Assembly: GCA_016183245.1 (NCBI GenBank)
Contig: JACPEY010000033.1
Span: 1 to 52,818, forward strand
Length of the DNA stretch: 52,818 nucleotides
Direction of reading: 5' to 3'
DNA from: Candidatus Daviesbacteria bacterium
GTDB taxonomy: Bacteria; Patescibacteriota; Microgenomatia; Daviesbacterales; UBA10151
Below the pieces are notes generated by a model. It was given only the letters and a program-made list of their open reading frames with translations. It had not been told where the DNA came from and searched no databases. Shown here one piece after another: positions 26,900 to 35,023 of the stretch. The translations under genes and the position numbers were made by a program. Numbering within the stretch: position 1 is the first letter of the stretch; the number at the start of each line of letters is the position of its first letter.

Positions 26900-27622
26900 A
26901 TGAAAATGGTTGAACTTATCACAGGTGCCGGATTTATTGTAGATGATAGATTTGGATCGGTTGAAAGTACAGGAAGAGTATATTCAGATCTTCCTCCTTC
27001 TCTTAAGCGTTCTTTCGATGGGTTGTTTAGAAAGTATCGCGGGTTAATTGAACAAACCCAAGTAACAGAATGGTCAAGTAATTTTGGAGTATTACCCAGT
27101 GTATTACCCAGTGAGCCTCTTCTGTTTGAGTTGTCGCCTGAGTTTTTAAGTCCCGAGAATTTTTTAGAAAAAGCAGTAACAAGATGGGGAGATCGGAGTA
27201 TAGATATACTCTATAGACAAAATAGGCAAACCCTGGAGGAGGAAGAGGAGCACGTAATTGTTTTATCTTCGCAGATTTTAGCAAATGGTAAATCACTTTC
27301 AATAGTATTGGGATATGTGCCAAGGGAGAAAATGAATAAATTGATGATACCCGTAAGAGAATCTTCAGAAGAAATACCTGGAACACTAACATCTGCTCTT
27401 GTGATTGCAGGAGCTATAGACGGTGCAGCTTTTAGATTTTATCAGCAAGGTACGCCAGCGGAAACTTTACAGGTTTTAGGAGAGGAAACATGGAAATCAT
27501 ATGGAGCTCGTCTTTTAGGACAGAATTCGGCTATACCCGTTATGCAAGGTGGCGTATTGGATTTTTCGTTATTAACTAGATCTCAGCCTTCTTCTGGTAA
27601 TGGCAATGGTAAATTTGTTTGA
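26900..27622 (+). CDS. Hypothetical protein (ORFan)
   Basis: 240-aa ORF with an ATG start and no motif I recognise. Confidence 0.5.
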   Translation: MKMVELITGAGFIVDDRFGSVESTGRVYSDLPPSLKRSFDGLFRKYRGLIEQTQVTEWSSNFGVLPSVLPSEPLLFELSPEFLSPENFLEKAVTRWGDRSIDILYRQNRQTLEEEEEHVIVLSSQILANGKSLSIVLGYVPREKMNKLMIPVRESSEEIPGTLTSALVIAGAIDGAAFRFYQQGTPAETLQVLGEETWKSYGARLLGQNSAIPVMQGGVLDFSLLTRSQPSSGNGNGKFV

Positions 27623-27703
27623 AACTATTGACAAAAGCGGTTATTTATCTTAAGATTTAAATTAACAATTTAATATTAATAAACCGTAGGATTTAAGTCC
27701 TGC

Positions 27704-27848
27704 GGACAATCAAGAGTGATGGCCTCTTTCGCTAAAGCTTCAAAGGCTAAAGGGAGAGATAGAGAATTGGCTCGAAACCATCCAGCAACCGAATATTTTT
27801 ATATGTCGCGGTGCTACACCCAACCCTTATAAAGGGAGGATTAGGTCC
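27704..27848 (+). promoter_or_regulatory. SAM-I (S-box)-like riboswitch aptamer
   Basis: By-eye match to S-box landmarks: P1 GGACAAUC/GAUUAGGUCC, J1/2 AAGAG, UUGGCUCGAAACCAUC closing P2, CAGCAACC, P3 hairpin CGAAUAU-UUUU-AUAUGUCG, GGUGCUACACCC, P4 CCCUU-AUA-AAGGG. There is an extra hairpin insert in P2. Confidence 0.6.
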
Positions 27849-27864
27849 GAATGTGGGCAAATTT

Positions 27865-27891
27865 AACCTCTCTTTGAAAGAGAGGTTTTTT
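27865..27891 (+). terminator. Intrinsic terminator serving as the riboswitch expression platform
   Basis: AACCUCUCU-loop-AGAGAGGUU followed by UUUU. The 5' arm CCUCUCUUU can alternatively pair with AAAGGGAGG of the aptamer 3' side (anti-terminator). Confidence 0.7.
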
Positions 27892-27929
27892 AATGGTTTA
27901 TTGGTTTTTATATGAAAGGAGGTGAAATT

Positions 27930-28325
27930 ATGGCAAATAGAATAGAAGCTTCAGCAGGACGAGCAATTGATGCAGTAGAAGCTTTACCAAGAGGCGGTCA
28001 GGTAGCAGAGGAGGTTTATGTTGGCAAGCACCCTCTTTTAGATGCCCATTTACAAGAAGTAGGACGCGTAGTTGGTTTGACTGCGTTAGGGAAGGGAGCA
28101 GCAAGATTAGCTGGAAATGAAGGGATTAGATGTATAATTCTTGAAAAAAATGGAGGGCTTCGTAATTTTAAAGGTGCAATTTTTTTAGCGATAGATCAGG
28201 GAAATCAAAAAGGCGGCGAGAGAAAAAATTATATCTTTGAACCAGGAAAAGAGCTTGATATACCTGATGGTGAGAGGCGTTTAGTGCAAACAGTTCTTGA
28301 AAATATTGCCCAGCTGGCTGTGTAA
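27930..28325 (+). CDS. Hypothetical protein, first gene of the riboswitch-controlled operon
   Basis: The ATG at 27930 is preceded by AAAGGAGGTG (27916-27924). 131 aa, no recognisable motif. Confidence 0.55.
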   Translation: MANRIEASAGRAIDAVEALPRGGQVAEEVYVGKHPLLDAHLQEVGRVVGLTALGKGAARLAGNEGIRCIILEKNGGLRNFKGAIFLAIDQGNQKGGERKNYIFEPGKELDIPDGERRLVQTVLENIAQLAV

Positions 28326-28427
28326 CTTTGAATCTCGTTATGAAGATTATGATAAGAGCTGGGTGTTAAAACACCCAGCTCAAAGGCTTGAATAAGTATT
28401 TGATGAAGCAGACGAAAGGAGAAAAAT

Positions 28428-29582
28428 ATGAATACTACAGAAATTAAAACAAGAGTGCCGTCATTTCCTAATATAGAGGCGGTTCAGGCTGCTCAATTGG
28501 CAAAAAAAGAGCAGCGTGAGGCTGATTTGTATCCCCGGGATGGCAGCAGGGAGCTTTTTGGGCTGGAGAGAGATATTGCGGAAATGTTGGGTGTGAGACC
28601 GGGCAACCTGTTGCTTTACAATACCGGCATGTCGGCTGTGGTAGATGCTTTGGAAATTTTACGGCCTACTGCTGGAACCAGAATACTTAGAGCGACTGAG
28701 GGCTATAGTCAGGCAAGGGGTTATATCAATGATGAATTAAAATCAAGGGGTGTAGCCGTGGTTGAAACAAATGCACAGTCAACCCAAGAACTTAATCAAG
28801 ATCTTGAGGCTAAAAGGCCAGATATAGTTTTTTTGGAAACTGTTACTAATGGTTCTGAGATGGCAGTTTTAAATGTAGATGAATTTCTAAATTTATCAAG
28901 CTTACGAAAATTGGATCCTTTGATAATCCTGGATAATACTTTACCAACCTCTACGGGTTTACCATTAGGCCAAATACTGGAAACATCGGACAGAAAAATA
29001 ATAGGCGTTGAAAGCGGAACAAAGTTTTTGGGTTTAAATGCGGAGATGTGTGGGATGGCTTATACTTATAATCTGGAATTACTATCACTTTTAAGAAAGA
29101 GGAGACAGCGGACAGGATCATTGCTTAGCGCATCAGCAGCAGAAACAATTAGGGATTGTATGCCTGGAACAGCAGAAGAATATTACCGGAGAAACAAAGC
29201 TATTTTTAAACATACATTAAGACTTGCCAGAGTGTGTGTTGAAAGCCAAAACCCGGAGAGCCAGTTTGTAGTAAATCATCCAAATTTACCAAATCACGAA
29301 AATAGCTATTATGTCAACTTGCATGCACCAGATGGAATATCGCCAGTCCTTTTTCTCGTGCCTGCAGATTTAGACAGTCATGTTCGTATTGCTGAAGCAC
29401 TCTGGTCAAATTTAACTATTTCGTCATTGTGCGATTTGGGGCAAAGTTTCGGTTTTGACAGGACCAGGATTTGGCCTGATGATAGTAGTCCCGTGGTTAG
29501 GGTTAGCGGTGGAATTTATTCAGAAGCAGAGCAGGCAGCATTAGATAAGGCTTTTTACCAAGTTTTATCAGATTATCAATAA
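28428..29582 (+). CDS. Divergent Cys/Met-metabolism PLP-dependent enzyme (cystathionine synthase/lyase fold)
   Basis: Layout Y-x-R...NTGMSAV...FLETVTNGSEMAV...ILDNT...ESGTKFLG (putative PLP lysine). AAGGAG SD. Confidence 0.65.
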   Translation: MNTTEIKTRVPSFPNIEAVQAAQLAKKEQREADLYPRDGSRELFGLERDIAEMLGVRPGNLLLYNTGMSAVVDALEILRPTAGTRILRATEGYSQARGYINDELKSRGVAVVETNAQSTQELNQDLEAKRPDIVFLETVTNGSEMAVLNVDEFLNLSSLRKLDPLIILDNTLPTSTGLPLGQILETSDRKIIGVESGTKFLGLNAEMCGMAYTYNLELLSLLRKRRQRTGSLLSASAAETIRDCMPGTAEEYYRRNKAIFKHTLRLARVCVESQNPESQFVVNHPNLPNHENSYYVNLHAPDGISPVLFLVPADLDSHVRIAEALWSNLTISSLCDLGQSFGFDRTRIWPDDSSPVVRVSGGIYSEAEQAALDKAFYQVLSDYQ

Positions 29583-29584
29583 GT

Positions 29585-30163
29585 ATGGAAAGAGTAAAAA
29601 ATGCAGTAATATTTCATGGTAGTGGAGACGGTCCTAGCTCATACTGGATACCCTATATGAGGCAGGGTCTGGAACTGAAAGGTTATCAGGTGAGGACACC
29701 ACAACTGCCTAATGATTCAGAGAGACTAGGATTAGACTTGTGGTTGCCTGAAGCTTTAAAGGCGCCTGATGTAAACACACGCCTTTTAATTGCCCACTCA
29801 GCCGGAGTGCCCCTTGCTTTGAGTGTGTTAGAAAGTCTAAAGGATGTAACCATAAATCAGGTAATTTTAGTGGCAGGTTTTTGTTCGCCAAGGGAATTAG
29901 ATGAATGGTGTGATGAGAGAAATCCAATTCTACAAGCCAGTTATGATTGGGATGCAATCCGGGCTCGCGTGGGACAGGTTATCTGCCTTAATTCAGATGA
30001 TGATCCATACACCTGTGATGATAGAAAAGGGCAGGAAATAGTTAATTTAATAGGATCGGATAAAGCTAGACTTATTGTGATGAAAGGCCAGGGACATATG
30101 GGTTCAGACTTTTTTCAGCAGCCTTATAAGGAGTTTCCGTTTCTTCTTAGTTTGGTGGGATAA
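29585..30163 (+). CDS. YdeN/RBBP9-like serine hydrolase (alpha/beta fold)
   Basis: VIFHGSGDGP..., nucleophile elbow AHSAG, SDDDPY, GHM. 192 aa. Confidence 0.6.
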   Translation: MERVKNAVIFHGSGDGPSSYWIPYMRQGLELKGYQVRTPQLPNDSERLGLDLWLPEALKAPDVNTRLLIAHSAGVPLALSVLESLKDVTINQVILVAGFCSPRELDEWCDERNPILQASYDWDAIRARVGQVICLNSDDDPYTCDDRKGQEIVNLIGSDKARLIVMKGQGHMGSDFFQQPYKEFPFLLSLVG

Positions 30164-30183: not shown

Positions 30184-30217
30184 TCAAAATCCAGTAAAAG
30201 AGGCAGGTGGTCGGAGA
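30184..30217. repeat. Direct repeat copy A (pseudo 3' end of the EEP gene)
   Basis: TCAAAATCCAGTAAAAGAGGCAGGTGGTCGGAGA. Matches 31344-31377 at 33 of 34 positions. The reverse strand still reads SDHLPLLLDFEL-stop. Confidence 0.9.
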
Positions 30218-30228
30218 TATTTGTCAAA

Positions 30229-30258
30229 TCTGCTATAATCTGCTATAATCTGCTATAG
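30229..30258. repeat. Tandem 10-mer (CTGCTATAAT x3, last unit CTGCTATAGT) upstream of the Fic gene
   Basis: Three consecutive units, each carrying a TATAAT/TATAGT -10-like hexamer, ending ~20 nt before the Fic ATG. Confidence 0.85.
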
Positions 30259-30278
30259 TTAAAATATCACTTGCAATT

Positions 30279-31340
30279 ATGATTAAAAACAGAAAGTTTG
30301 AAAAAAGGTTAGAGCTGATTCCTGCGCAAATTTTGCTAAAACTTGCTCAAATTGATGAGCTAAAAGGTAAGTGGAGCGCAGGAGCCAGTTTAAATCCCCA
30401 ACTTCTGGGCAGGCTTAAAAAATCAGTTCTGATTACCTCTACAGGCGCTTCTACCAGGATTGAAGGCGCCAGGTTATCAGATGATGATATTGAAGATTTA
30501 ATGCAGGGTATTGCCGTGCAGAAATTTACTGATAGGGACAGACAGGAGATCCAGGGTTATTATGAATTGCTGCAGATAATTTTTGAAAACTGGGAACATA
30601 TCAGATTTGGGGAAAATACAATAAAACACCTGCATCAGGAATTATTAAAGTATGCTGAGAAAGACCAGAATCACAGAGGTAGATACAAAAGTACCGACAA
30701 TAAGGTTGAGATGGTTGATGAAAAAGGCCGCAGGATTGGAGTTATTTTTGATACTACTCCGGCATATCTCACGCCCAAACAGATGCAGGAATTGGTTGAA
30801 TGGACCAGGGGCGCTTTGGATACCAAGCTCTCGCATCCCCTTATTATTATTGGCAACTTTTTAGTTGAATTTTTAAATATCCACCCTTTTAGAGATGGAA
30901 ATGGCAGATTATCCAGAATTTTGGCTAACCTGCTTTTGATTCAGACAGGCTATCTATACATACCGTATGTTTCTCACGAGAGGCTGATTGAGGATCAAAA
31001 ACCCCAGTATTATCTTGCTCTAAGAAAAAGCCAGAAGACTTTTAAAAAGGGTGTTGGTAATATTGCACCGTGGCTGGAGTTTTTCTTAGATATTGTTTTT
31101 GCTCAATCAAAAGAGGCTATAAGTTTAATGTCCGGTGAAAATATTGAGGATATTTTATCCCTCAAACAAAGAGTAGTCTGGCAGTATCTGCAAAACGTTG
31201 ATGAAGCCTCACCCGGGCAGATAGCCAAATCGACAAAAGTTGCTTATGCAACCGTCAGACAGGCGCTTGCAAAGCTGTTTGACCTGAAGAAAGTTAAAAG
31301 AGTAGGCATGGGAAGAAGTTCCCGTTATTGCAAAGTTTAA
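30279..31340 (+). CDS. Fic-domain protein (AMPylase-type) with an N-terminal inhibitory motif and a C-terminal wHTH
   Basis: HPFRDGNGRLSRIL active-site motif. STRIEG matches the (S/T)xxxE(G/N) inhibitory helix. C-terminal ASPGQIAKSTKVAYATVRQAL is HTH-like. Confidence 0.85.
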   Translation: MIKNRKFEKRLELIPAQILLKLAQIDELKGKWSAGASLNPQLLGRLKKSVLITSTGASTRIEGARLSDDDIEDLMQGIAVQKFTDRDRQEIQGYYELLQIIFENWEHIRFGENTIKHLHQELLKYAEKDQNHRGRYKSTDNKVEMVDEKGRRIGVIFDTTPAYLTPKQMQELVEWTRGALDTKLSHPLIIIGNFLVEFLNIHPFRDGNGRLSRILANLLLIQTGYLYIPYVSHERLIEDQKPQYYLALRKSQKTFKKGVGNIAPWLEFFLDIVFAQSKEAISLMSGENIEDILSLKQRVVWQYLQNVDEASPGQIAKSTKVAYATVRQALAKLFDLKKVKRVGMGRSSRYCKV

Positions 31341-32143
31341 ATATCAAAATCCAGTAAAAGGGGCAGGTGGTCGGAGACGTCAGTGTCTAAAACTTTGAAG
31401 GAATTTATCTTTATACCTTTGCTTACTAAAATATAATCTACAACATTTCTTTCCAGATGATTTAGCTCATTAGTTTGCGGTCTGGTGGTTTTGATATGAT
31501 GTTCATCAACTAAGCTGATGAAATCTTTAAAGACCCTCATGGATTCTGTATCCGGAAATAAATTAAAATCCCCTGTAATTATGACCGGATAATCAACTTC
31601 TTTGGCCAGTTGATTAACCTTTTGACAAGCCTTTAAAGTATCTTTATTGCCAATTTTTTCCCTGGTCCAGATGCCGTGATAATTTATAACCCTTAACTTT
31701 TTTAAGTTTGGTAATTTAAAATCTACAACCTGTACTGCTTTGGATTCGGATTTTGGCCAGGTAGACCAGTCTAGAATCTGAATATTTTTATTGTCGGTGA
31801 TAAATATATTTATTTTTTTTAATATTTTAAATTTACTTTTAATATAATTTCCGGATTCTAAAAATCCCCCGAAATCAAAATCAAAATTTTCTTTTTGATG
31901 AAAATTCTTCCGGTGGAAATCGCGAATCTTACAGGTGGGGGCAAAAAAGGAATAACTTAATTTTTTAGTAGCTTTATCTATCAAATCTTTTGAGAGGTAA
32001 TTTGGATCAACTTCAGTATCAACTTTATCTGCAACTTCCTGCAAACAAACAATATCAGGATTTTGCTCAAGCAGGAATTTATATAACTGCTCATTATTGG
32101 TTTCAAACAAGGCAACATTTAATGAGATAAGTTGCATGTTCAT
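31337..32143 (-). CDS. Endonuclease/exonuclease/phosphatase (EEP) family protein
   Basis: N-terminal IVCLQEV, GDFNLFPD, and C-terminal SDHLPLLLDF motifs. Confidence 0.8.
   Translation of the reverse strand: MNMQLISLNVALFETNNEQLYKFLLEQNPDIVCLQEVADKVDTEVDPNYLSKDLIDKATKKLSYSFFAPTCKIRDFHRKNFHQKENFDFDFGGFLESGNYIKSKFKILKKINIFITDNKNIQILDWSTWPKSESKAVQVVDFKLPNLKKLRVINYHGIWTREKIGNKDTLKACQKVNQLAKEVDYPVIITGDFNLFPDTESMRVFKDFISLVDEHHIKTTRPQTNELNHLERNVVDYILVSKGIKINSFKVLDTDVSDHLPLLLDFDI
31344..31377. repeat. Direct repeat copy B (true 3' end of the EEP gene)
   Basis: TCAAAATCCAGTAAAAGGGGCAGGTGGTCGGAGA, encoding SDHLPLLLDFDI-stop on the minus strand. Confidence 0.9.
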
Positions 32144-32737: not shown

Positions 32738-33994
32738 TTAGGTTCCTTCATTCCAGGAGGATAAATATTTTTTCTGTTCTTTGGTTAAGGTATCAATTTT
32801 GACCCCTAATGATTCCAGCTTTAGTTTGGCAATCATGTCATCTAACTCTTGCGGCACAGTATAAACATCTGTTTTTAATTTGCCGCGGTTTTGCACCAAG
32901 AATTCAGCAGCCAAAGCCTGATTGGCAAAGCTCATATCCATTACATCAGGCGGGTGGCCTTCTGCTGAGGCTAAATTAATCAGCCGGCCTTCTCCCAGCA
33001 CAAAAATCTTTTTACCGTCACTTAAAATAATTTCTTCCAGATTATCCCGCAAAATTCTTCTGCTTTTGGCAATCTTGACTAAACCATCATAATCAAACTC
33101 CACATTAAAGTGGCCGGTATTGGAAACAATGCATCCGTCTTTAATTTTTTTAAAATGTTCAACTGATAAAACGGTTTTATTGCCGGTGGCAGTACAAATA
33201 ATGTCGGCAATTTTAACAGCTTCGGAAACCGGCATTACCTCAAAACCATCCATTACAGCCTCCAAAGCTTTTAAAGGATCAACCTCTGTGATGATTACCT
33301 GTGATCCCATGCCCCGGGCTCTTTGAGCCAACCCCCTTCCGCACCAGCCGTAGCCTACTACTACAAATTTTTTACCTGCCAAAAGCACATTGGTGGCTCT
33401 GATTATTCCGTCAACGGTGGATTGGCCGGTGCCGTAACGGTTATCAAACATGTGTTTGGTGTTACTATCATTGACTGCAATGGCGGGTATTTTTAGCGTG
33501 TCGTCTTTTAACATGGCCCGAAGTCTTATAACTCCGGTGGTTGTTTCTTCGGTAGAACCTAAAACTTTAGGTAGTTGGGATTTCCTTTTTGTGTGCAGTA
33601 AAGTAACTAAATCTGCCCCGTCATCCATGGTAATTTGTGGTTTAAAGTCCAAGACTTCATTTAAATGCTTATAATAGGTATCTTTGTCTTCGCCCTTGAG
33701 GGAAAAAGTAGGGATATTAAAATCTGCTGCCAATGAGGCAGCCACATCATCTTGAGTGGATAAGGGGTTGGAAGCACAAAGCGCCAAATTTGCTCCTCCT
33801 GCTTTTAAAGCAATCATTAAATTTGCAGTTTCTGCAGTTACATGCAGGCAAGCCCCTAAGGTTATACCTTTTAAGGGTTTTTCTTTGGTAAAACGATTTT
33901 TAATAAGTTCCAAAACCTTCATCTGGGAACCAGCCCATTCAATTCGGAGTTTTCCTTTAGGTGCAAGTTTAATGTTTTTAATATCTTTTTTCAT
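32738..33994 (-). CDS. ahcY: Adenosylhomocysteinase
   Basis: Classical SAHH motifs ([44 protein letters not shown]). The start is moved to the ATG at 33994, because the track ATG at 34009 lies inside the repeat terminus. Confidence 0.95.
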
Positions 33995-34004
33995 AAAATG
34001 TTTT

Positions 34005-34085
34005 GTCATTGCGAGGAGCGAGTCTTCGAGCGACGTGGCAATCTATTTTATATAGAAGATTGCTTTGCTAATCGCTCGCAATGAC
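34005..34085. repeat. MITE-like palindromic repeat (GTCATTGCGAG...CTCGCAATGAC) between the PfkB kinase gene and ahcY
   Basis: 11-nt perfect terminal inverted repeats plus an inner GCAATCT/AGATTGC pair. Confidence 0.85.
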
Positions 34086-34087
34086 GG

Positions 34088-35023
34088 TCACAGCAGATTC
34101 AATTCCTCTTCAAAATTATGTTGGTATCTTTTACAAAATTCCTCAACTGTAAATTTGTGATTAGTTGTACCATATTTTTCTACTGAATAACAAGAAGCAA
34201 TAGAGCCCATTTGCCCGCAAACTTTCAGGTCCAAACTCTTTAAATGCCCTGCTAAAAATCCAGCTCTATAAGCATCTCCTGCCCCGGTGGGGTCAACAAC
34301 TTTGCCTGGTTTGGCTGGCTGAATTTGAATGGTTTGATTTTTGGTCTGGATAATAGACCCTTTTTCACCTAAAGTGGTAATAAGTATCTTAGCCTGCCCC
34401 AAAAGTTTGGCCTCGTCCAGGTTAAGTTTTTCTTTTAAAAGAGCAATTTCATAATCATTGCCAATTAAAATTTCTGCGCCTTTTAACATACTTTCTAAAT
34501 TACCGGCAGTCAGAGCCGGCAGCTGCATGCCGGGGTCTAACATATAAGGGATGTTTTGTTTTTGGCAATCAGAGGTAAGATTTATCATCGCTTGAGGGTT
34601 GTTGGGGGAAATAACTGCAAAATCAGTTTTGATTCCTTTCAAAGATAACTTCTGGGCATATTCCATGGCTCCCGGATAAAAGGCAGTAATTTGATTGTCT
34701 GATTTATCAGTCATGATAAAACAGGAAGAAGTGAGGTTGTTATCAATGGTTTTAATCAGGGAAATATCTACCCCGGCATCTTTTAAGAACCTGGCATATT
34801 CTAAAAAATCCACCCCGGCCATACTAACAATAGAAACAGGAGTTTTTAGCAGGGCTAAATTGTAGGCAATATTGCCGGCAGTGCCGCCTCTTTGTTTGCT
34901 TAAAGTGTTAACCAGAAATGAAAGATTTATCTGGTGGATTTTATCAGGCATGATGTGGTCTGCAAATTTGCCAGGAAAATTCATGATATGGTCAAAAGCC
35001 AAAGATCCGGTAACAGTAATCAT
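34088..35023 (-). CDS. PfkB-family carbohydrate/nucleoside kinase (adenosine-kinase-like by context)
   Basis: DPTGAGDAYRAGF anion-hole motif and GG dipeptide region GGTAGNIA. Located upstream of ahcY. Confidence 0.8.
   Translation of the reverse strand: MITVTGSLAFDHIMNFPGKFADHIMPDKIHQINLSFLVNTLSKQRGGTAGNIAYNLALLKTPVSIVSMAGVDFLEYARFLKDAGVDISLIKTIDNNLTSSCFIMTDKSDNQITAFYPGAMEYAQKLSLKGIKTDFAVISPNNPQAMINLTSDCQKQNIPYMLDPGMQLPALTAGNLESMLKGAEILIGNDYEIALLKEKLNLDEAKLLGQAKILITTLGEKGSIIQTKNQTIQIQPAKPGKVVDPTGAGDAYRAGFLAGHLKSLDLKVCGQMGSIASCYSVEKYGTTNHKFTVEEFCKRYQHNFEEELNLL

Follow-up and report, generated by a model that had tools for sequence, protein, structure and literature searches.

A riboswitch-controlled operon with a divergent Cys/Met-family PLP enzyme in Candidatus Daviesbacteria as a possible methionine/SAM-supply system

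The described systems closest to the locus reported here are the S-box regulon of Bacillota, in which SAM-I riboswitches (Rfam RF00162), such as the Bacillus subtilis metI-metC, metE and metK leaders, act as OFF switches that respond to S-adenosylmethionine (SAM), and the pyridoxal 5'-phosphate (PLP) enzymes of the Cys/Met family. Among the latter, MetY or MetB act after a homoserine acyltransferase, which is either MetX (Ser-His-Asp) or the unrelated MetA (Cys-His-Glu), and MetY can take methanethiol and thereby make methionine directly. Organisms of the candidate phyla radiation (CPR) and DPANN are believed to obtain almost all of their amino acids by import, and the present operon bears on how they are supplied with SAM and on what becomes of their homocysteine. 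It lies in a stretch of 52,818 nucleotides (nt), to which we refer as the window, from Candidatus Daviesbacteria bacterium (GenBank assembly GCA_016183245.1, contig JACPEY010000033.1, positions 1 to 52,818, forward strand), and consists of a SAM-I riboswitch followed by three genes, all on the + strand: gene 1 for a 131-amino acid (aa) protein, gene 2 for a divergent PLP enzyme and gene 3 for a small alpha/beta serine hydrolase.

We read these genes as a SAM-repressed methionine/SAM-supply operon, a reading to which we give a probability of roughly 55%. The OFF logic of the riboswitch, the metK, metE and cysH-like genes that accompany the PLP gene elsewhere and the intact active site of its product together speak for an enzyme whose role is to provide methionine, or homocysteine in the presence of MetE, at low SAM. 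The riboswitch and gene 2 form a conserved unit across Microgenomates and Saccharibacteria. Related loci and genomes are cited below by our own labels (L and G numbers).

At its gathering threshold Rfam gave no matches anywhere in the window, and a sensitive Rfam scan of the window scored the leader at 30.1 bits against RF00162 (gathering cut-off 44.4) with P1 mis-placed. A covariance model generated from the leaders of eight insert-free relatives (referred to as R1) matched the window leader over its full length at 27705-27847 on the + strand (64.2 bits, E 1e-15), and the aptamer comprises P1 (AAUC/GAUU), P2, P3, P4 and a UUGG/CCAA pseudoknot. Using these eight leaders and no prior constraint, RNAalifold recovered the four-helix layout (P1-P4) of SAM-I. 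Over 20 leaders, 13 of 25 pairs carry compensatory changes and 95.7% of the cells are paired, compared to 29-45% in controls with slid partners. The pseudoknot between the P2 loop and J3/4 can pair in all eight sequences, with one compensatory change (U-A to C-G), and comparison of related leaders places UUGG and CCAA at the expected positions in the window. The core nucleotides AUCAAGAG, CAGCAACC, GGUGCUA, CCCAA and GGGAGGAU are all present, in order, at 27705-27847 and in 15 relatives. The leader, which the initial annotation had called SAM-type, is thereby confidently predicted to be a genuine SAM-I riboswitch, though it scores below the Rfam cut-off.

The shortfall comes from an additional hairpin of 35 nt in the 5' side of P2 (27725-27759, + strand), as identified by comparing leaders with and without the insert; the RF00162 threshold is reached in insert-free relatives (47 bits in L005, 54 in L030, 51.5 in L032 and 70 in G179). 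The insert forms a separate stem within P2 in the minimum free energy fold, with a three-way junction at that point, and it occupies the site of the kink-turn (K-turn) bulge of standard SAM-I. L003 and L011 have a near-identical insert, whereas L028 and L024 carry another hairpin at this site. Such K-turn-site variants explain how riboswitches of these lineages escape the Rfam thresholds. The motif GCUAAAGCUUC (27735-27745 in the window) recurs within the P2 inserts of the window, L003, L011 and L028 and is also found in a P3 insertion of L028 (L028 2763-2949), and the inserts that share it may have a common origin or a role in a tertiary contact.

The region between the aptamer and gene 1 carries an expression platform. 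A terminator scan predicted an intrinsic terminator at 27865-27892 (+ strand; 10-bp stem followed by a U run), with a fold of -12.5 kcal/mol, and its 5' arm, CCUCUCUUU, is able to pair instead with AAAGGGAGG of the aptamer P4/J4-1, giving an alternative antiterminator helix of -18.2 kcal/mol. The relatives carry the same terminator sequence behind the aptamer. The predicted terminator/antiterminator arrangement is that of a classical OFF switch: with SAM bound, P1 and P4 would hold the 3' strand of the aptamer, the terminator would form and the operon would be off, and at low SAM the antiterminator would form and all three genes would be made. Upstream, a consensus scan detected a putative promoter, TTGACA-17-TAAGAT, at 27628-27656 (+ strand; 10/12 matches), and TTGACA is present at the equivalent position in relatives.

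At genome scale the leader was the sole SAM-type leader found in its own genome. A search of small scope also gave a 32-bit R1 match ahead of metK in that genome (L016:1325-1409). Shorter SAM-type leaders precede metK there and in the relatives L025, L026 and L027 (R1 29-36 bits, Rfam weak); these keep AUCAAGAG, GGCAACC and GGUGCCA and look reduced otherwise. In L005 (4896-5003) the aptamer stops 5 nt before the ATG with no terminator behind it and its P4/J4-1 strand, GGGAGG, would double as a Shine-Dalgarno (SD) site, such that this version of the riboswitch probably acts on translation.

Using Rfam or R1, a riboswitch was detected directly upstream of the PLP gene in nine of nine loci from the protein collection or G205 (window, L001, L002, L003, L005, L006, L009, L011 and G205), and in 22 of 29 species-level loci, many of them Saccharibacteria; two loci are common to both sets (L034 = L003, L060 = L001). 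Seven PLP loci have no R1 match, and in six of these Rfam gave no SAM-class riboswitch; two of the seven are archaeal and two (L045, L058) are cut off too close to the gene at a contig end. The neighbours of the PLP gene are of interest with respect to its role. A bacterial metK adjoins it in L047, L054, L056, L059 and L061, and a split metE belongs to the same riboswitch operon in L009/L010 (Levybacteria) and L059 (Saccharibacteria). A cysH-like gene lies directly 5' of it in L045, L048, L057 and L059, and in the last three of these the cysH-like gene has a riboswitch ahead of it; L045 is too short at its end to show one. L009 also has a gene resembling that of methylenetetrahydrofolate reductase (MTHFR), and a thrC-like gene lies just upstream of the PLP gene in L001 and L036, in L001 with the riboswitch between the two. 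Beside the L009 riboswitch operon, a weak T-box-like match (L009:4548-4720, - strand; 31 bits, gathering score 93) is located upstream of a divergently oriented gene with a CntK_N domain.

Gene 2 (28428-29582, + strand; 384 aa) matches PF01053 at 57.3 bits (cut-off 27) with its lysine within ESGTKFLG, and its initial assignment as a divergent Cys/Met PLP enzyme holds. Residues invariant in its clade are Y35, R37, G67, M68, E137, N141, D169, S196, K199 and R358. The catalytic set K199, S196, D169, Y93, Y35/R37 and R358 is invariant or nearly so in 35 clade members and was aligned to MGL (methionine gamma-lyase) and CGS (cystathionine gamma-synthase); it covers the Schiff-base Lys (S-x-T-K), the Asp at the pyridine nitrogen, the stacking Tyr, the phosphate-binding Tyr-x-Arg and the C-terminal Arg for the carboxylate. 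As aligned, the predicted enzyme keeps every residue needed for catalysis in gamma-family PLP enzymes. The AlphaFold2 (AF2) model (pLDDT 94.4) has the fold-type I architecture of the gamma-family, and it resembles MGL, CGS, cystathionine gamma-lyase (CGL) and the sulfhydrylases alike, with template modelling (TM) scores of 0.71-0.78 (about 0.75) and 18-22% identity.

To place gene 2 among the subfamilies we used subfamily hidden Markov models (HMMs) and a profile search of the PDB. None of the NCBIfam models for MetB, MetC, MetY, MetZ, MGL and CGL was matched by gene 2 above 58.6 bits (cut-off 440), and the 35 clade members weakly matched 39 subfamily models, none prominent, with a best E-value of 6e-22. 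The clade profile scored 50-83 bits against all subfamilies in the PDB, with MGL marginally first, and there are also weak matches of individual members to a model for an archaeal racemase that shares the fold. By these profile comparisons the clade is placed outside all characterised subfamilies. It is rare, found in one of 400 other genomes sampled from the class and in 29 of about 185,000 species representatives. By their labels, the 29 loci are mainly from Saccharibacteria, with others of Daviesbacteria type (several labelled 'Gammaproteobacteria' or 'Patescibacteria'), one contig labelled 'Dormiibacterota' and two labelled Micrarchaeota. The two latter (L040 and L038) look truly archaeal, as one has a tRNA gene whose length is that of an intron-bearing gene and the other encodes a C/D-box small RNA; in L040 (2270-4688) the PLP gene overlaps an archaeal-type SAM synthetase gene (metK), and neither contig has a riboswitch by the PLP gene. 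The presence of the clade on archaeal contigs suggests transfer between CPR and DPANN.

The host genomes provide some insight into what such an enzyme could do. Neither PF01717 nor PF02574 (methionine synthase) was found in the genome that carries the window, which is 90% complete, or in four Saccharibacteria carriers, whose completeness is not known, and PF01717 is not in G205, which is 99% complete; a methionine synthase was thus found in none of six carrier genomes (for G205 with respect to PF01717). Searches for homoserine dehydrogenase in the window's genome and in G205, and for thrC in the former, gave no match; the window's genome does have metK, and three GHMP kinases cluster on another of its contigs. 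The suggestion that this is not a standard met operon is borne out, as neither a homoserine supply nor a methionine synthase was found in that genome.

The PLP enzyme would, through gamma-replacement or a related reaction, convert a scavenged precursor to methionine, or to homocysteine where MetE is present, and the methionine would feed MetK. Since neither a methionine synthase nor a pathway to homoserine turned up in several of the carriers, methionine as the direct product is the most economical version. A possible route would be from methanethiol and either activated homoserine or AhcY-derived homocysteine. Extended to the whole clade, the idea becomes that of a one-enzyme route to methionine, independent of folate and B12, in genome-reduced CPR/DPANN symbionts, which would combine methanethiol with AhcY homocysteine or scavenged activated homoserine, use an interchangeable Ser- or Cys-type acyl-enzyme partner, be under SAM-I control and have the 131-aa family as a regulon component; we put this forward as a speculation that is improbable in its entirety.

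Several points weigh against a supply operon. A source of homoserine or activated homoserine is found neither in the window's genome (90%) nor in G205 (99%). No characterised subfamily model was matched, so that the predicted reaction of gene 2 is a guess, and the best PDB profile matches are methionine gamma-lyases, if by a small margin (83 vs 50-78 bits). The hydrolase family of gene 3 is widespread, its nearest orthologues lack a riboswitch and its placement here could be incidental.

Some of the same observations bear on a catabolic role, in which the PLP enzyme would be a homocysteine/methionine gamma-lyase (desulfhydrase) that clears AhcY homocysteine, as in anaerobic protists, and would be co-regulated with metK because the flux through MetK sets the homocysteine output. 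The MGL profile and fold matches at the top, the failure to find a MetE/MetH-type gene in the six carrier genomes, the ahcY-pfkB pair that adjoins the PLP gene in Daviesbacteria and the operons shared with metK in Saccharibacteria are all consistent with it. However, an OFF riboswitch would stop disposal just when SAM, and hence S-adenosylhomocysteine and homocysteine, is high, the metE, MTHFR-like and cysH-like genes with which the enzyme shares operons are anabolic, MGL leads the other subfamilies only narrowly, and the Cys that typically follows the PLP-stacking Tyr in MGL is replaced in the alignment (Y-S-Q vs Y-G-C). We regard a degradative role as doubtful, disfavoured by the SAM-OFF control and by the metE and cysH-like neighbours.

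Gene 3 (29585-30163, + strand; 192 aa) was initially described as a small alpha/beta serine hydrolase, and our data agree: it belongs to the YdeN/RBBP9 type (PF06821, 36.3 bits, cut-off 22), matches B. subtilis YdeN (1uxo) with E 2e-7 and has AHSAG aligned to the AHSLG nucleophile elbow. Candidates for the rest of the triad are an Asp in the Asp-rich NSDDD, which aligns with KDD of YdeN, and a His inferred only from GQGHMG in the sequence. It shares with YdeN/RBBP9 the length, the fold family and the A/G-H-S-x-G elbow, and differs in that a hydrolase of this type is coupled to the PLP gene in the window, L001/L060 and L033, the only loci, three in number and all from Daviesbacteria, where it follows that gene. 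The family is present in 153 of 401 genomes of the class (including one unpublished genome, G068, on which nothing else reported here relies), with a second copy in the window's genome, and none of the nine nearest orthologue loci has a convincing riboswitch; we rejected the hydrolase as a member of the regulon on the latter ground.

In L009 the position right after the PLP gene is held by a 163-aa protein (L009:6181-6672), which is homologous to the C-terminal extension (approximately 150 aa) of fused PLP proteins of 527-537 aa (G205, L014:1111-2715, - strand; P0050; P0058; L036:3480-5063). This partner domain has an invariant Cys, an HWF motif and then (D/N)P, and its Atlas model resembles C39/papain-like peptidases (TM 0.58-0.63). 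Encoded as a separate protein behind the PLP gene or joined to the C-terminus of its product, this papain/C39-like Cys-His domain constitutes a Rosetta-stone link. That two unrelated acyl-enzyme types occupy one slot, one of them repeatedly fused, suggests that the slot serves a step that releases or activates a substrate, which gene 3 or the Cys-His partner would supply or activate through an acyl-enzyme. By analogy, the pair of Ser- and Cys-type partners suggests a parallel with MetX and MetA.

The two unrelated hydrolase-type partners could point to the prior cleavage of an amide, ester or thioester, and hence to other PLP chemistry on a methionine-related compound, such as D-methionine racemisation, cystathionine cleavage or the processing of another scavenged conjugate freed by the hydrolase partner. 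The equal distance of the clade from all characterised subfamilies and the weak racemase-model matches among its members would fit such chemistry, but no particular substrate is indicated and the catalytic residues match those of the lyases and synthases of the gamma-family, and we consider it unlikely.

Gene 1 (27930-28325, + strand) belongs to a small uncharacterised family tied to SAM riboswitches. It had been taken for an ORFan, which no longer applies: an exhaustive HMMER search gave 18 distant relatives, mostly 127-169 aa, and the family also has longer fused forms of 378, 401 and 784 aa. Pfam, NCBIfam and the PDB gave no sequence match, a word-based homologue search gave only the gene 1 protein itself and 0 of 400 other genomes sampled from the class carry the gene. 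In all six loci of the family with DNA at hand (window, L002, L028, L030, L032 and L073) a SAM-I riboswitch lies upstream. L002 is the sole recurrence of a gene 1 homologue ahead of the PLP gene. At L032:80-3294 the riboswitch is followed by a core-MetE with Meth_synt_2 as its only domain, then by a class I methyltransferase and finally by a protein of 401 aa that ends in the gene 1 domain, an arrangement that may represent a methyl-donor system for the core methionine synthase. A seventh family member (P0081 contig) is followed by a SAM hydroxide adenosyltransferase (PF01887), which converts SAM to adenosine and methionine, and by a 112-aa open reading frame (ORF).

The AF2 model of gene 1 (pLDDT 91.6, pTM 0.85) shows an antiparallel sheet of seven strands with a helix before and after it. 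With Foldseek the PDB yielded nothing at E <= 1e-3, and no structure search gave a convincing relative, so that the searches proposed for this protein yielded sequence relatives and no convincing fold match. The best VIA-align match (Z 6.3, to TipC2, 6dhx) lies within the chance range, the Atlas searched by features gave nothing usable, and the Atlas searched by shape gave a TipC cluster with TM 0.60 by query and 0.40 by target at a root-mean-square deviation of 4 A, which is likewise in the chance range. TipC-type immunity proteins and SRPBCC/START-like binders share the N-terminal helix, the curved antiparallel sheet and the C-terminal helix with gene 1, whereas TipC shows no sequence similarity to it and gene 1 has no toxin neighbour; with scores in the chance range, membership of either group is not supported. 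The invariant positions of the family are G, A and L, and no Cys, His, Asp or Ser is conserved. The absence of conserved polar catalytic residues makes a binding or regulatory protein more likely than an enzyme, and gene 1 probably codes for such a protein of the same regulon.

Tight packing had been reported for the three genes; it applies to genes 2 and 3, where the ATG of gene 3 lies 2 nt past the stop of gene 2, and not to genes 1 and 2, which are separated by a 102-nt spacer. The two strong SD sites noted earlier are those of gene 1 (AAAGGAGGTG) and gene 2 (GAAAGGAG). The spacer contains a perfect 11-bp hairpin without a U tract (28356-28381, + strand; -21.3 kcal/mol, z -6.0), which is not present in L002, where gene 1 and the PLP gene are 42 nt apart. 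It was rejected as a dispersed repeat, being single copy within the window. Directly upstream of the leader, a 240-aa ORF (26900-27622) has no Pfam or NCBIfam match and no counterpart in the related loci examined; other Daviesbacteria loci have unrelated ORFs of 412-437 aa at this place.

A proposed check for co-occurrence of the three genes gave a mixed result: the riboswitch-PLP pair is kept as described above, gene 1 recurs with the PLP gene once and the PLP gene with the hydrolase twice (L001 = L060, L033), and the complete trio is present only here. The trio could for this reason be an accidental juxtaposition or a recent island without a common function, the hydrolase family being common elsewhere and the Fic insertion next to it showing that the site is plastic. 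Conversely, many independent loci show the links of the riboswitch to the PLP gene and to gene 1, and genes 2 and 3 lie 2 nt apart, a pairing that is repeated in L001 and L033. The base composition is not unusual either: the operon had been thought less AT-rich than its surroundings, but its GC content of 41.4% (39.4% +/- 1.7% for comparison) is equalled in 13.6% of equal-sized windows, and with a shift that is not significant we rejected a GC island. Chance assembly is already disfavoured by the conservation data and is, in our estimate, extremely unlikely.

Downstream of the operon, a Fic gene (PF02661; 30279-31340) sits between two direct copies of a 34-nt repeat (30184-30217 and 31344-31377) that are identical in 33 of 34 positions (30184-31377 in total, + strand), with a promoter-like TTGTCA-17-TATAAT at 30221-30249 ahead of it. 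In L030 the gene 1 homologue faces the gene of the EEP nuclease family directly, with no Fic gene in between, and Fic is a later insertion downstream of the operon, in keeping with the earlier description. Beyond it, on the opposite strand, follow the EEP gene, a small gene pair (toxin-antitoxin), ahcY (32738-34009; TIGR00936, 617 bits) and a pfkB-type kinase gene (34088-35023; PfkB/nucleoside-kinase matches), the two latter together spanning 32738-35023 on the - strand. The ahcY and kinase genes lie where the initial annotation had put them. Their association with the operon is positional: ahcY-pfkB neighbours are also present in L001, L002, L003, L033 and L073, the order LigT ... riboswitch ... 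ahcY-pfkB is conserved in Daviesbacteria, and the pair represents inherited synteny, convergent with the operon and outside its transcript.

Genomes of the same genus without the PLP gene (G138, G270, G153) keep the riboswitch and terminator at the LigT...ahcY site (L021:1502-1975, L022:1502-1971, L023:1502-2041; 45-50 bits with Rfam, 107-113 with R1). There, the riboswitch is followed by a strong SD site and mutually unrelated ORFs of 90-119 aa, which in L021 and L022 stop about 10 nt from the stop of the convergent ahcY, and one such short ORF has a homologue behind the gene 1 homologue of L028. Homology of gene 1 to these ORFs was rejected (hhalign probabilities 0.1-0.3%). The 3' ends of the operon's last gene and of ahcY overlap or are no more than 10 nt apart in L003 and L073. 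As the riboswitch is kept with differing cargo at the same site, the riboswitch is the stable feature and the cargo a mosaic.

Clostridium acetobutylicum is known to have an antisense RNA under S-box control, and the close ends at ahcY, together with the riboswitches that precede nothing other than short unrelated ORFs, raise the question whether the riboswitch mainly gates read-through antisense into ahcY-pfkB, with the genes behind it as variable passengers. In the window, however, Fic, EEP and the toxin-antitoxin pair (2.5 kb) lie between the operon and ahcY, and a weak terminator-like hairpin is present on the + strand at the ahcY 3' end. Moreover, the riboswitch-PLP pair is kept in Saccharibacteria without ahcY nearby, and the small ORFs have strong SD sites and, in one case, the L028 homologue. 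An antisense function as the main role is very unlikely on this evidence.

Of the components of the supply operon that we favour, the class of riboswitch and the families to which the PLP enzyme and the hydrolase belong were known before. What is new is a PLP clade confined to CPR/DPANN that lies outside the characterised subfamilies and is consistently under riboswitch control, along with the interchangeable partner of Ser or Cys type, the family of small proteins to which gene 1 belongs as part of the SAM regulon, and aptamer variants with hairpins inserted at the K-turn site; in the literature we found no paper on SAM riboswitches, or on the enzyme clade of gene 2, in CPR. The riboswitch singles out the PLP clade, the 131-aa family and the papain-like domain for a part in methionine/SAM homeostasis without the textbook pathway, and the operon provides testable enzyme candidates and a natural control element predicted to respond to SAM in Patescibacteria. 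Inducible expression tools are wanted for these organisms (PMC11665869).

Compared to the known systems, gene 2 has its best profile and fold match in methionine gamma-lyase (83 bits, TM 0.77), which is known from bacteria and from Entamoeba/Trichomonas, and its hosts resemble organisms that lack homocysteine remethylation; identity to MGL is about 20%, and the Cys typical of MGL is absent. With MetY/MetZ and their partners MetX (alpha/beta hydrolase) or MetA, the locus shares the gamma-family fold and complete catalytic set, an operon partner that is a Ser-type alpha/beta hydrolase or a Cys-His domain and, in some lineages, metE alongside. It differs in scores of 25-60 bits against cut-offs of 495-700 and in the partner, which in place of MetX or MetA is a YdeN-type hydrolase of 192 aa or a papain-like domain of 150 aa; a homoserine dehydrogenase was found in neither of two carrier genomes. 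Relative to the S-box regulon of Bacillota, the aptamer here is enlarged by hairpins in P2 and, among its relatives, in P3 and P4 as well, the PLP enzyme lies outside MetB/MetC/MetY/MetZ, and the host genomes examined did not yield the remainder of the pathway. The S-box likeness extends from the aptamer architecture, core nucleotides, pseudoknot and OFF logic to the cargo, which is a Cys/Met-family PLP enzyme and, in relatives, includes metK, metE and cysH-like genes.

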